Shown: positions 32,191 through 43,920 of the stretch, piece by piece
Numbering within the stretch: position 1 is the stretch's first letter
How the letters are laid out: each line of letters starts with the position of its first letter
DNA from: Mustelus asterias
Taxonomy: Eukaryota
DNA: 64,000 bases
NCBI RefSeq assembly: GCF_964213995.1
Contig: NW_027590357.1
Location: 62,001-126,000, forward strand
Direction: 5' to 3'
The notes under the pieces: model-generated
The model's input: only the letters and a program-made list of their open reading frames with translations
What the model was told of the DNA's origin: nothing
The model's database searches: none
Translations under genes and position numbers: made by a program

Positions 32191-32490
32191 ATTGCATTCC
32201 AATGCTCTTGACTGAGTCGCTGTGTCGAACCTCACACTTGATTTTGCTGCACTCTCCCTCTGACTGGGTGATGGTTAACTGGCTGCTCAAGGTGTAGGTT
32301 CCCTTTGCGTTTCTCACTGATGGATAATTCTTAAATCCAGTGTCGATCAGCTGCCCATTTTTCTTCCAGGTCAGTTTGGAGACATCTGGAGAGTAGTCCA
32401 TCGCCAAACAGCCGTAGGTGATGGAGCCAGCGGAGTTGTGTTGCTGACAGGAAGAGACGAGGCTGTAGAGAGTGGGCGGAGACGGTGTCG
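32191..32490 (-). CDS. IGHM: IgM heavy-chain constant exon CH1 (C-mu1)
   Basis: Acceptor tctttcccag and donor T|gtaagt bound a 300-nt phase-1 exon in frame with [101 protein letters not shown]. This is a C1-set domain with the shark C-mu1 GCLAMDYSP and GTYTxSSQLTI signatures. Confidence 0.93.
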
Positions 32491-33020
32491 CTGGGAAAGA
32501 ATAGTCGATTAAACAAGTTAGACTATTACCTGCGTTTATTAATTAATCAAACATATTTATACAAGTATGTTTCTATATTAGGTATAGCTCTTGGGGCTAA
32601 AGGGATCAGTGGATATGGGTAGTAGGCGGGGTCAGGATATTATTGAGCCATGATCAAAGTGAATGGTGGAGCAGGGTCAAAGGGCCGAATGGCCTCCTCC
32701 TGCTTCTATTTTCTATGTTTCAACGTCACGATTTGACTAGAATTATGAACTTAAGTTAATATTTCCCGATTAAAACCTACGCACACCTTTGAGCTGCTGT
32801 TACTCCTATCAGTTGGGAATCGCCATTTTTGGAGAAACTCACATCACTGTCACCACCTCTATCAGATTGGAAAGACAAAAACATTTTGAGGTCATCGTAA
32901 TGACATACCATTCATTGGATTAACAGAGAAGAGTAAAGACTTTCTCCATTATTTCAGGCACTACCTATTTCTCAAACAACAGCACGTTGTGATGAAGAAG
33001 TTGTCTCTTCATTCATATCA

Positions 33021-33142
33021 GCCACTCACCTGATGAAAGAGCTCCAAAAGTTCGCAATTCCAAATAATCCTGTTGTACTTTAACCTGGTGTTGTGAGACT
33101 CCTTACTGTGCCCACCCCAACCTAACGCCGGCATCTCCACAT
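33021..33142 (+). mobile_element. Degenerate Penelope-like terminal repeat in the IgM J-C intron (antisense to IgM)
   Basis: Clearly homologous to 11971-12110. CTGATGA is retained, but GAAA has become AAAA and stem II is shortened. Confidence 0.55.
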
Positions 33143-33469
33143 TGTAATTTTTGGATATTGCCTGTGTTCAAACTGACTGAAGCCCCTTCCTCTCTCCAAC
33201 TCTCACTCCACAAAACGAAGATTAGTGACTTTCGTTCAGAAATACCTTCGGAATGAATACTTACTGAATGACCAGGAAACTGGAAATGTGATTACAAATT
33301 CAAATAATTGCAACATTGACTAATTTAAGGGTCGTACATTAATAGCAAGAGTTGACCATTCGGACCCTGAAGTCTCCTCCATAGTTCACTGAGATTGCAG
33401 ATGAACTGGTTGTGGTGCTAGCTCTATTTTGCACCTCCTCACTCCGCCCGTCGATCACCCACTCTCTGC

Positions 33470-34310
33470 CCATTTTCCCTGGCTCTCTGCCCTTTCCCCT
33501 GGCTCTCTGCCATTCCCTGTGGCTCCTTTCCCCTTTCACCCGGCTCTCTACACTTCCACCTGGCTCTCGACACTTCCCTCCAGCTCTGTGCCCTCTCCCC
33601 CGGCTCTCTGCCCTTTCCCTCAGCACCCTACCCTTTCCCACGGCTCTCTGCCCGGTGTCCCTGCTCACTATTCTCCTTCCCCTTTCCCCTGGCTCTCTGC
33701 CATTCCCTGTGGCTCCTTTCCCCTTTCACCCGGCTCTCTACACTTCCACCTGGCTCTCGACACTTCCCTCCAGCTCTGTGCCCTCTCCCCCGGCTCTCTG
33801 CCCTTTCCCTCAGCACCCTACCCTTTCCCCCGGCTCTCTGCCCTCTGTCCCTGCTCACTATTCTCTTTCCCCTTTCCCCTGGCTCTCTGTCCTTTCCCCC
33901 GGCTCTCTGCCCTTCCCCCCTGACTCTCTGTCTTTCCCCCTGACTCTCTGCCCTTTCCCCAGGGCTCTTTTGCACTTTTCGTCGGCTCTCTGTCCTTTCC
34001 CCGGCCTCCCTGCCCTTTATCCTGGCTCTCTCCTCTTTCCCTGATCTCCCTGCCATTTCCTCCATCTCGCTGCCTTTTCTCCTGTTTCTCTGCCCTTTCA
34101 CCTGGCTCCCTGCCCTTTCCATTGGCGCTCTTTCCCATTTCTCCTGGCTCTCTGCCCTTTCTCCTGGCTCTCTGCCCTTTCCCCCGGCTCTCGGCCCTTT
34201 CCCCAGACTCTGTGCCCTCCCCCCCCCCCCCCCCCCGCCCGCCCCAGCTCTCTGCCCTTTACCACGCCTCCTGTTCTCCCCGGCTCTTTCCCATTGTCCT
34301 TGGCCCTGAG
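33470..34310 (-). repeat. ~20-bp purine/G-rich (minus strand) minisatellite with a 190-bp duplicated block, ~1 kb 5' of CH1
   Basis: Plus-strand unit ggctctctgccctttcccc; identical anchors at 33501 and 33691. Confidence 0.9.
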
Positions 34311-34429
34311 CCCCCAGGGATTCCCCCCAGCTCTCCACATTCGCAGGGCAGCTCCCACATTTGAACACCAAACTGCTGCTTGAGATCTTTCTTCTCTCTC
34401 ATCGCAGACCTCCACACACAGGTTTAGCG

Positions 34430-35360
34430 AGTGTGAGTGAGAGAATGTGAGTGCGTGAGGGTGAGTGATTGAAGGAGTGAAAGTGGATGAGTGATGGTGT
34501 GTGAGTGATGGAAGGTGGGTAAGTGAGGGTGAGTGATTGAGTGTGAGTGAGTAAGTGTGGGTGAGGGTGAGAGAGCGTGAGTAAATGAGGGTGTGTGAGA
34601 GAGGGTGGATGAGTGAAGGTGGCTGAATGTGTGAGTGAAGGTGGTTGAGTGAGTGTCGGTAAGAGAGAATGAATGAATGAGGGTGAGCGAGTGAGGATGC
34701 GTGAAGGTTAGTGAAGGTGGGTGAGTGAGAGTGAGTGAATGAGGGTGAGGAGTGAATGTGACTTAGTAAGTGAGGGTGAGAGAGTGAGTGAGTCAGGGTG
34801 TGTTATTGAGGGTGGTGTGAGAGTGTGTGAGGGAGAATAAATGCGGATGGGTGGATGAGTGAGGGTGAGTGAGTGAAGGTGTTTGAGTGAGGATGAGTGA
34901 TTGAGGATCTGTGAGTTAGGGTGGGTGACCTTGAGTGATGGTGAATATGTGAGGGTGTGTGAGTGAATGTAGGTGCGTGAGTCTCAGTGAGTTTGAATGG
35001 GTCAGGTGGCGTACGTGAGAGAGAGAGGGCGATTGAGCTTGAGTGTGTGGGGGTGCGTCTGGGTGAGTGAGGGTCGGTAAGTGGGGAGAGTGAGTGAGTG
35101 TGAGTGAGAGAGACTGAGACTGGATGAGTGAAGGTGCGTAAGTGGGGTGAGTGAGGGTGAGTGAGAGTGAGTGAGACTGGATAAGTGAGGGTGGGTAAGT
35201 AGGGTGAGTGAGTGAGAGTGAATGAGGGTGAGTGAGTGAGGATGGGTGAAAGTGAGAGAGCGAATGTGTGTGAGTGATTTTGAGTGTGTGAGGGTGTGAG
35301 GGTGTGAGGGTGAGTGACTCAGGGTGAATGAGGATCAGTGAGTTTCTGAGGTTGAGTGCG
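34430..35360. repeat. (GAGT/GAGGGT)n low-complexity tract
   Basis: Degenerate gagtgagggtgagt repeats. Confidence 0.9.
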
Positions 35361-35367
35361 TGAGATT

Positions 35368-42343: not shown

Positions 42344-42430
42344 CTGCAGTCACCGTCACCATGGTCCCTTGTCCCCAGTAGTCCATGGCGTCACAGTGTC
42401 ACATTCTCTAGGCTGGGTCATACAATAACC
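42344..42430 (-). CDS. IGHJ: IgH J segment (42344-42391, AMDYWGQGTMVTVTA) with 23-bp 5' RSS
   Basis: Minus strand: GGTTATTGT, 23 nt, CACTGTG, then a WGQGT motif and a phase-1 donor G|gtaaga. Confidence 0.96.
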
Positions 42431-42756
42431 ATCTCTGCACAAAATAGACAGAAATCCATCAGTATTTTAAAAATTCACAAGCCAGAGGGAAAGCAAATCA
42501 CTGCATTTTCATGAAATTATTATTGTACTGGTGGATACCGTTCGCTCTACATAAATAACCTTAATGTTTTATATTTCATAGAGGATCACATGATCAAGTT
42601 ATTGAAAACACCAACTGATAATCAAATAGTTATCATAAATTTCCCATATTAATTCTCGCTATTTGTGTAGTGCTGGGACATAAATAATACAGCACCGTAA
42701 ATAATGCTGGATTGGAAAACAGAGCACTGCCCCAGTCTCGGTCAATTAGTGCTGAG

Positions 42757-42825
42757 GGTTTTTGTATTGACAGTAACTGCTGTGCCACCCCAGTTATCAC
42801 AGTGAGACACAGCATGACAAATACT
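42757..42825 (-). other. IGHD: IgH D2 segment (42785-42797, ATAACTGGGGTGG) with 12/12 RSSs
   Basis: Plus strand: ggtttttgt(42757-65), 12 nt, tgctgtg(42778-84), D, cacagtg(42798-804), 12 nt, acaaatact(42817-25). Confidence 0.93.
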
Positions 42826-43125
42826 GTGCCCGACTGCTAACTGTTTAATTACACTGCTGTCTCAAAAATCTGATTCTGCCTCATCCACGAGCGAGTGACT
42901 GAGATATTTCAGCTTGTCCTGGTCATTGTATTTATAAAGGGGATCGGAATGCTTTTAAACTCTCTGTGTAGATTTAGCATATCGGTAAATATAGATTTTA
43001 TGGGAAGATTTTTATACCTTTTCACAAACTAATATTACTTCCACACATTATTTCACTGAAGCCTCGTTTACTTTGAAACTCCTGCTGTGGCACTGATCAC
43101 CAATTTGAGCAATCTCTTTCCATGA

Positions 43126-43205
43126 GGTTTTTGTATGAGGATGTCGCTGTGCTCAGCACAGTGACCCACTGCTGTATCACAGTGACAGACACTCGCACAA
43201 AAACT
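43126..43205 (-). other. IGHD: IgH D1 segment (43164-43177, ATACAGCAGTGGGT) with 12-bp 5' RSS and 22-bp 3' RSS
   Basis: Plus strand: ggtttttgt(43126-34), 22 nt, cacagtg(43157-63), D, cacagtg(43178-84), 12 nt, acaaaaact(43197-205). Confidence 0.92.
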
Positions 43206-43576
43206 GCACTCACTCTCTGTTCAGTACTGCCGCTCAATATTCACTTCAAATAGACCATTATTTCGATGTAATTTACAATTTATGCAGCAGTTCACAAAAC
43301 ACAATCTAGAAACATCTCCTCCAAGTATCAGAAATATTAAAACGAGCATTATATCCAGGTGTGTAATTGCTGAAACTGTTAACAGTAAATATAAACAGAG
43401 TGAAAAGCTCAGCCCATTATGTCTGTGTGTTTTCTTGGTTTAATGTTTAATTTTCACTAAGTTGGGTTTGTCAGAAGCGGTTTGTGTTTTGGTTCTGGTC
43501 ACTGTCGTTAATACTACATTGAAAACAAGCACTGACCTTCAGGTTATGATGGAAGTTGCTGAATTCCCTCTCGAGC

Positions 43577-43615
43577 TGTTCTTGTTCGGGTCCATCCCTA
43601 GTTCCTCTCGCTGTG
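43577..43615 (-). other. V 3' recombination signal sequence (23-bp spacer)
   Basis: Minus strand reads CACAGCG - agaggaactagggatggacccga (23 nt) - ACAAGAACA immediately after the V coding end. Confidence 0.93.
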
Positions 43616-43920
43616 GTGTCTTGCACAGTAATAGATGGCGGTGTCTTCGGTCTTCAGCCTCGTCATCTCCAAAGAGAAGATGTTGCTTGAAGTGTCTTTG
43701 GACGCAGTAAATCGATCTTTAATTGCTGGGGCGTAGTTGTTGCTAGATGAACTATAGTACCACAGCAGCCACTCTAGCCCCTGTCCTGGAACCTGTCGGA
43801 TCCAGTGCATGGAAGCGCTGCTAAGACTGAAGCCGCTGGTTTTACAGGTCAGTGTCAGGGAGCCTCCTGGACGCCCGGTCTCTGCCTCTGGCTGAGTCAA
43901 CACAACCTGCGACTGGACAC
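43616..43920 (-). CDS. IGHV: Germline immunoglobulin heavy-chain V gene segment, shark IgM type (V exon only; no leader exon found)
   Basis: Splice acceptor ttttacag at 43921-43928 (minus strand), then an open frame (G)[101 protein letters not shown]. It has the canonical Cys, WxRQ and YYC framework residues and is followed directly by an RSS. The framework resembles elasmobranch IgM V rather than IgW or IgNAR V. Confidence 0.96.

Follow-up and report, generated by a model that had tools for sequence, protein, structure and literature searches.

A V-D-D-J-CH1 array of immunoglobulin heavy-chain type lies within the 64-kb stretch of DNA analysed here (the window), and it raises the question of how a cluster without a leader and without CH2–CH4 came to be there, and whether it still serves recombination. 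The first-pass annotation regarded it as an orphan, a recently transposed and doubly truncated cluster. In our view it is very probably a leaderless, promoterless IgM-type pseudogene that would have originated by fusion of a cluster with a duplicon and by segmental duplication, in the five steps described below. All parts of the window copy (V, D1, D2, J and CH1) were found on the minus strand:

31757..32190, minus strand, CH1-CH2 intron, first 434 bp only
32191..32490, minus strand, CH1 exon, open, with AG/GT ends (C1-set, E 2.3e-13)
32491..42343, minus strand, J-CH1 intron, 9,853 bp, mosaic
42344..42430, minus strand, JH with 23-RSS and GT donor (segment 42344-42391)
42757..42825, minus strand, D2 with two 12-RSSs (segment 42785-42797)
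43126..43205, minus strand, D1 with 12-RSS and 22-RSS (segment 43164-43177)
43577..43615, minus strand, V 23-RSS (CACAGCG / ACAAGAACA), matching intact clusters
43616..43920, minus strand, VH exon of IgM type, open, acceptor intact (V-set, E 1.5e-17)
43921..44027, minus strand, leader intron remnant, 107 of 132 bp

Domain matches, AG/GT ends and RSS geometry agree with the annotation of V, D1, D2, J and CH1 as open and correctly bounded. The RSS layout is V23 / 12-D1-22 / 12-D2-12 / 23-J with all six RSSs present, and six of the nine RSS-like matches in the window lie inside the 1.3 kb of the cluster. V, the two D segments and J span 1.6 kb with 12/23-compatible RSSs, as in a minicluster (~2 kb). 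The RSSs had been called intact, and their heptamers and nonamers are indeed those of the leader-bearing clusters C229, C112 and C158; compared to leader-bearing clusters, the J spacer differs by one base, and D2 is one G longer than in C229 and C112. The V showed 97% amino-acid identity to the V of leader-bearing C229/C112, and the protein sequence of CH1 is 100% identical to that of the complete cluster C91:785k, which has four C exons, a secretory tail and a TM exon, an identity that places the window CH1 in the C-mu class. The name IgM is taken from the layout of this complete cluster. A PDB search with CH1 gave heavy-chain CH1 and antibody-fragment matches, with shark C-mu absent from the best 60. 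The stretch of N at 35719 has a length of 182 and paralogs have 82–208 bases at the same place, so that no large gap is hidden at this position, where a check had been advised.

A 15-codon leader exon was present 166–180 bp upstream of V in 25 of the 30 V loci examined; in the remaining five, the window copy and four sister copies, the leader position is occupied by duplicon DNA. As annotated, no ATG-initiated hydrophobic exon lies in the 250 bp preceding the V acceptor, the single ATG encoding MFKINRFKINQFKSN and then a stop. The annotated lack of CH2–CH4 downstream of CH1 extends over the whole scaffold (416,768 bases, 935 N), in which no leader, promoter, CH2, CH3, CH4 or TM was found. In a control on C229, protein queries recovered V, CH1–CH4 and TM, and the 15-residue leader query gave no signal; the absence of a leader therefore rests on a DNA search, which found the leader in four leader-bearing clusters. 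For the V-associated promoter, the 400 bp of C229 that lie above the break position had no match anywhere in the window scaffold. Weak matches to a CH2 query on the scaffold proved false, deriving from C2H2 zinc-finger ORFs.

In the NAR-TCR-type layout, a leaderless supporting V is spliced from an upstream exon. Upstream of the window V, neither a VDJ nor a leader exon that could be spliced to it was found on the same strand, and a search of the 100 kb upstream of V, in which the control leader was detected, gave no leader-like substitute exon. The sole J on the scaffold is the cluster's own. The scaffold also bears TCR-type V segments and a NAR-type V, the latter 145 kb from the cluster on the opposite strand, and no TCR-delta D, J or C. 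Lacking in cis the split leader, the V promoter and the full set of CH1–CH4, tail and TM that make up a functional minicluster, the window copy is predicted to make no protein.

Both ends of the cluster are fused to a high-copy duplicon, in agreement with the annotated position between duplicons:

16378..20503, plus strand, fragments of a non-LTR element (ORF2 end, zinc-knuckle ORF1; weak zf-RVT and zf-CCHC matches), presumably Tx1-like
20502..31761, plus strand, left partial copy of the high-copy duplicon, 0/1001 differences to the copy in C1012 in the tested block
31757..31761, 3′ breakpoint, fusion of Ig DNA with the duplicon interior at a 5-bp imperfect microhomology
44027..44028, 5′ breakpoint, duplicon fused inside the leader intron at a shared CTAA, one A lost
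44028..64000, plus strand, right duplicon copy, extending past the window (family of at least 40)
45856..46094, plus strand, TATA box and two small exons predicted from sequence in the duplicon

The TATA/exon element stands head to head with V at a distance of 1.9 kb and was conserved in 12/12 duplicon copies examined. Pfam returned no family for any of 10 ORFs tried (non-Ig, non-zinc-finger, non-Tx1-like), and no coherent exon chain was seen in the one duplicon copy scanned.

Alignment to complete clusters mapped both breakpoints, as had been proposed. Two junctions had been placed at ~44.1 and ~31.8 kb; their existence was confirmed and their positions were corrected, homology ending at 44027 and 31757. 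The cluster is thus doubly truncated as annotated, with the 5′ break in the leader intron and the 3′ break 434 bp past CH1. Homology with the duplicon at the 5′ breakpoint reaches up to TTTTCTAA in some clusters, and native duplicon sequence runs on uninterrupted past the junction site in seven junction-free copies. In a genome-wide search, the leader-removing 5′ junction was identical in exactly five contigs. The 3′ junction of the window is single-copy in the assembly sequence (1 of 40 scored matches).

This single occurrence, the highly repetitive nature of the region and the different nearest relatives of V and CH1 would fit a misassembly, in which the doubly truncated form is chimeric, if not throughout then at the 3′ junction or the N stretch. 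We consider a chimera improbable: the 5′ junction is found in five contigs, the sister C1179 independently ends after CH1, and the imperfect homology at the 3′ join extends over no more than 5 bp, presumably unlike the long repeats where assemblers misjoin. Besides, the family switch between V and CH1, for which the N stretch was considered as a location and rejected, maps near 35.35 kb, outside it, and recurs in the N-free C462.

The annotated movement of the cluster fared less well than its recent date, which was upheld. Movement of a cassette into an unrelated site by transposition, RAG-mediated or by retrotransposition, might be suggested by the duplicon on both sides and the nearby non-LTR element, and yet it appears highly improbable, being contradicted by the junction sequences. 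The cluster has kept its introns and does not end at RSSs, its flanks recur in the sisters over ~110 kb instead of being unrelated, and the two breakpoints lie ~22 kb apart within the duplicon, so that there is no target-site duplication. The same non-LTR element adjoins the Ig break in the sisters C1179 and C1012.

Rather than an orphan, the window copy is one of five near-identical leaderless copies (window, C1179, C1012, C91 and C1007) of one junction inside a shared block of ~110 kb, and one sister shares its scaffold with intact IgM clusters. Some of the five junction contigs may be alleles. The V side is identical across all five, including one CDR1 base that is private among 21 aligned V sequences, and the three unjoined copies have a common private base in the V-D1 spacer that is absent from eight intact clusters. 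Each fully visible copy has its own 3′ break and a patchwork body: it lies 434 bp past CH1 in the window copy, immediately ahead of CH2 in C1179, within the J-C intron in C1012 and in the V-D1 spacer in the C91 sister, while C1007 runs to its contig end. Across V-J (1,657 bp), the window copy showed 0 differences to C1012. Its J-CH1 intron is of the main-family type above ~35.35 kb, with 11–49 differences per block to main-family clusters in the 5′ intron, and of the C91:785k-family type below, where near CH1 it differed at 2 of 951 positions from C91:785k versus 61–116 from main-family clusters. A further candidate member, C462, in which the same family switch occurs, was rejected as an independent duplicon-Ig fusion; C479 is independent as well.

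We propose that a C229/C112-like cluster was joined to the duplicon inside the leader intron, probably by microhomology, with loss of leader and promoter at the junction observed. This junction now occurs in the five contigs within the shared block, the copies were broken separately at their 3′ ends, and their bodies were exchanged with other IgM clusters, the observed patchwork being attributable to gene conversion or unequal crossover. The family thus illustrates piecewise exchange of bodies among shark IgM clusters and recurrent breakage against a single duplicon, so that cluster counts or trees based on a single exon can mislead.

It had also been suggested that the fragment could donate VDJ or V sequence, that is, rearrange in lymphocytes and contribute by inter-cluster switching, conversion or trans-rearrangement to TCR-delta. 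Its RSSs are as intact as those of complete clusters, NAR- and TCR-type V segments are on the same scaffold, and both shark inter-cluster switching (cited sections of PMC5192425) and IgH-V to TCR-delta trans-rearrangement (cited sections of PMC12227049) are on record; speculatively, the duplicon TATA element might open chromatin. Such a role is nonetheless improbable and found no support here, since the private CDR1 was in no leader-bearing cluster examined: its 15-mer matched the five leaderless copies and two further sites on large contigs, within chance. Leader and promoter are absent, and shark promoters appear to be V-associated only, according to the sections of PMC5192425 cited. The 100 kb upstream hold no leader-like exon, and the NAR-type V is distant and opposite in strand. 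A VDJ without leader or promoter would presumably be silent even after a switch to another C.

The annotated status of plausible RAG substrate received indirect support from two sister copies. C1179 and C1007 carry an identical V-D1-D2 join without N bases, on a V identical to that of the window, in which V was trimmed by 5, D1 by 3 and 1 and D2 by 2, with zero added bases; fused segments, trimming and lack of N addition are those of a germline join. In the window copy the segments are separate and the RSSs retained. The joined/unjoined pair differed at 0/404 V-side and 2/1900 flank positions. The D2-J bodies of C1179 and C1007 differed at 32 of ~1500 columns with the same join in both, the first 500 columns past D2 in C1007 being closest to C112 and C229, which are also the nearest V relatives. 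Short-read run X4, possibly derived from the assembled individual, contains a 70-base record that crosses the join with 0 differences, at a depth of 16.1. Among the listed records for the sister locus in runs X1, X2, X4 and X6 none bridged the 5′ junction, and among those of X1, X2 and X6 none spanned the join; as a further 117 records lay outside the listing and the contigs drop variants, these negatives bear neither way on polymorphism. Because the same join occurs in two contigs with different bodies and at this depth, it is strongly supported that it was inherited and not derived from one lymphocyte, and a somatic B-cell origin was rejected.

The join was presumably made by RAG in germ cells, as indicated by trimming of coding ends beside RSS positions like that described previously (PMC2193156); P nucleotides were absent. 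In the last step of the proposed origin, one leaderless copy would have been joined in this way and now be present in C1179 and C1007. It is somewhat more likely than not that RAG acted on a promoterless copy; the fuller claim, that V-D1-D2 joining took place in the germline on an already promoterless, leaderless cluster, recently given the allele-level difference, with a join that may still segregate, is advanced as a serious but tentative one. The window copy itself may still be cut by RAG.

Against this last step only, it is possible, though somewhat doubtful, that an intact cluster with its promoter was the one joined, or that joining preceded leader loss, and that a crossover in FR3 later linked the join to the leaderless head or separated the two; in that case RAG would never have acted on a promoterless cluster. 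FR3 is identical in the leaderless copies, C229, C112 and C91:867k and offers no diagnostic base, so that a crossover in the last ~167 bp of V could couple a join from an intact cluster to the leaderless head, and the window copy by itself contains several family switches along its 12 kb. Leader-bearing germline joins are common: of the 30 loci examined, in a search biased to joined loci, 7 are joined, and 5 of these bear a leader. In the divergent leader-bearing cluster C91:2408k the join is nearly the same, equal in length but with one base changed where D1 meets D2 and one in the V end, which makes an older shared origin possible. However, 4 bases past D2 the heptamer of C91:2408k is that of its own family, its last 120 V columns contain 7 differences, and descent of the sisters' join from the present-day C91:2408k was judged unlikely. 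An extra crossover would be needed, and a joined C229-type donor is absent from the assembly, in which no leader-bearing cluster has the exact sister join. Other joins, too, have V cut back to one or two recurring end positions, which makes it plausible that look-alike joins arose independently, and the private V-D1 spacer base of the unjoined copies is not shared by the intact clusters.

Further observations count against the proposed origin: exchanges are frequent here, the window D2 has four G and the sisters' join three, the 3′ junction is single-copy, contigs may include alleles and X4 possibly is the assembled individual.

Truncated shark clusters are already known, and VD and VDD germline joins of shark heavy-chain genes are found in reviews. 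Taken alone, the window fragment is unremarkable debris from a multigene family in constant turnover, and its value lies in its relatives: with a joined and an unjoined copy of identical V, both promoterless, whether germline joining needs an Ig promoter and is still ongoing becomes testable. If RAG did act in the germline on a promoterless copy, V(D)J recombination in the shark germline would need no Ig promoter, and the leaderless family would be a ready-made substrate-and-product pair.

Compared to the elasmobranch IgM minicluster VH-D1-D2-JH-Cmu, as given in the cited sections of PMC5192425 and PMC2435157, the window copy has the same V/D/D/J order and canonical RSS layout, but it is without leader, promoter, CH2–CH4, tail and TM, is fused to the duplicon at both ends and has its junction in five copies. 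Like the nurse shark IgM pseudogene clusters (Groups 6-8, G2C; cited sections of PMC2435157), it is non-functional among functional clusters; there, Groups 6-8 showed no rearrangement on Southern blots of lymphocyte DNA, an observation that weighs against RAG action on a pseudogene copy. TCR- or NAR-type V exons occur among IgH clusters here as in the elasmobranch antigen receptor complex (Flajnik et al., 2025; cited sections of PMC12227049), which differs from the window scaffold in its TCR-delta D, J and C, a comparison made at the level of the scaffold. The closest parallel is given by the germline-joined shark NS4 light-chain genes (Lee et al., 2000; PMC2193156): the leaderless sisters are likewise trimmed and free of added bases, and joined copies exist next to split relatives, but the sisters have no leader or promoter, and the window copy is unjoined. 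Lee et al. described germline joining events as rare, the youngest within 7 Myr; their closest pair, so dated, compares with 0 differences in 404 V-side columns in the leaderless pair, a divergence that conversion resets, which bears on any dating in years.

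The Ig exons of the fragment were found on the reverse strand of the window:

43920–43616, reverse strand: VH exon with an open frame and a proper splice site
32490–32191, reverse strand: CH1 exon with an open frame and proper splice sites

D1, D2 and JH were found beside them on the same strand. Nine RSS-like matches were detected in the window, six of them within 1.3 kb between V and J; the RSS order was V23 / 12-D1-22 / 12-D2-12 / 23-J, and heptamers and nonamers were those of three leader-bearing clusters. Frames, splice sites and RSS layout thus agree with the first-pass annotation, which described open, correctly bounded V, D1, D2, J and CH1 with intact RSSs. 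The window corresponds to G000:C325:62001–126000; the J end showed 54 exact matches across the 3.68-Gb assembly. We take the fragment to be IgM because its complete relatives contain four C exons, a secretory tail and a TM exon.

The proposed double truncation was confirmed, and both breakpoints were mapped to a duplicon, a repeat present in at least 40 copies (all 40 scored matches, from 4,529 candidates, at ≥94%). At the 5′ break (44027) the duplicon was fused to the leader intron; CTAA was common to both parents, one A was lost, and the native duplicon continuation was visible in seven junction-free copies. At the 3′ break (31757), 434 bp beyond CH1, the Ig intron runs directly into internal sequence of this duplicon; five bases of imperfect homology lie at the joint, and one of the 40 scored matches spanned this junction. 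The cluster had been called transposed, but retained introns, ends away from RSSs and the absence of a target-site duplication argue against transposition. One duplicon feature was conserved in all 12 copies examined:

45856–46094, forward strand: TATA box and two small predicted exons

The right duplicon contained a local tandem duplication (50980–52564 / 54386–55971) that was not present in C1007, and repeated retrovirus-like long ORFs were inserted in a duplicon copy at G000:C170:365–392 kb (L214–L216). Two further contigs, C462 (L115–L116; without V-D-D-J) and C479 (L164–L166; VD-joined, with leader and CH1–CH4, cut just before TM), carried independent duplicon–IgM fusions.

The fragment is not an orphan, as exactly five sites of the assembly carry its 5′ junction: C325 (the window's contig), C1012, C91:1128k, C1179 and C1007. 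About 110 kb were common to C325, C1012 and C1179 (95–99.8% identity), and the shorter parts fetched from C1007 and C91 matched C325 likewise. At its 3′ end C1012 abuts a non-LTR element within the J–C intron, C1179 ends against the same element just before CH2, C91:1128k ends in the V–D1 spacer, and C1007 at its contig end. Some of these copies may be allelic to each other; even with both haplotypes in the assembly, no fewer than three leaderless loci would be left.

A 15-codon leader exon with a 120–134-bp intron was found at 25 of 30 V loci examined, and different DNA starting 107 bp above the V acceptor at five, including the window copy. The 416,768-base scaffold, outside its 935 N bases, was searched with protein and DNA sequences of C229, a complete cluster; V and CH1 were the only parts detected, with no promoter, leader, CH2, CH3, CH4 or TM, so that the reported lack of leader and CH2–CH4 in cis extends scaffold-wide. 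A scan of 100 kb upstream of V for a substitute leader exon was empty, while the true leader was recovered in the control. The window copy is therefore predicted to make no protein, being without leader, promoter and C-terminal exons.

From V through J, the window copy and C1012 showed 0 differences in 1,657 positions. The 5′ J–C intron diverged by ~1–4% from main-family clusters, and near CH1 only 2 of 951 bases differed from the family of C91:785k, compared to 61–116 for main-family clusters. The same family switch was found in C462 without any N. This patchwork body probably arose by repeated conversion or unequal crossover. Besides, C166 (L130) showed D1-like sequence in the D2 position, which suggests conversion between D segments.

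In the sisters C1179 and C1007, V was fused to D1 and D2, with the 3′ RSS of D2 and J intact. The join was wholly templated, without P nucleotides, and trimmed by 5 bases at V, 3 and 1 at D1 and 2 at D2; RAG presumably made it. Two lines show that it is germline: it is common to both contigs although their D2–J bodies differ at 32 of ~1500 columns, and a 70-base record of short-read run X4, which may be from the assembled animal, spans it with 0 differences at depth 16.1. The join pattern had three matches genome-wide, the third being a variant join in the divergent C91:2408k (L144), a leader-bearing VDD-J cluster with a nearly identical join and no CH1 within the following 26 kb.

On the V side, the five leaderless copies were identical over ~404 columns and had in common one CDR1 base that the 16 other aligned V sequences lacked; the flanks of the window copy and joined C1007 differed at 2 of 1,900 columns. 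The order with the fewest steps would be leader loss, duplication, and then a germline V–D1–D2 join on one leaderless copy. We lean slightly towards the join having arisen on such an already leaderless copy, since the D2–J of C1007 is nearest to C112 and C229, themselves the nearest V relatives, and the three unjoined copies have a private spacer base in common. A join made on an intact cluster and then coupled to the leaderless head is somewhat short of an even chance; the last ~167 bp of V are uninformative and exchanges between clusters are frequent, so one crossover would suffice, but this is one more than the leaderless-first order requires.

The suggested donation of V to other clusters found no sign in the assembly: the family CDR1 15-mer matched the five leaderless copies and two sites on large contigs, with ~7 matches expected by chance. 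A leaderless VDJ, even after switching, would still have no start. Shark promoters appear V-associated and rearrangement takes place within clusters, with switching between clusters occurring (PMC5192425), and rearrangement of nurse shark pseudogene clusters was not seen on blots (PMC2435157).

Further V sequences were found on the same scaffold, ~145 kb from the window's V:

L179:4245–4760 (G000:C325:250.2–250.8 kb), forward strand: NAR-type V exon, open frame, leader-like exon, consensus-like RSS
L180:430–1080, forward strand: TCR-like V pseudogene, leader-like exon, broken frame, RSS
L180:4790–4890, reverse strand: truncated V 3′ end, TCR-like relic, 23-RSS

The best PDB matches of the NAR-type V were VNARs (E 1.5e-17), and no D or J for it was found on the C325 scaffold. 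The window also contained a minisatellite (3019–4958, ~52-bp period), a C2H2 zinc-finger exon (11472–11996), with more such exons along the scaffold, and the following element:

16378–20503 (also L093–L095): non-LTR element, presumably Tx1-like

On C91 this element formed a tandem array of ~7-kb units adjoining the V-only sister.

Truncated pseudogenes and germline joins are both already known kinds; no paper on their combination was found in a literature search with most subscription journals outside reach. The value lies in a testable joined/unjoined promoterless pair rather than in the fragment itself. The join of the sisters is like those that Lee et al. reported from the germline, which are poor in N bases (PMC2193156), and the C325 scaffold, with a NAR-type V and TCR-like V relics besides the IgH fragment, fits the antigen receptor complex, where IgH clusters have TCR-type V exons interspersed among them (PMC12227049).
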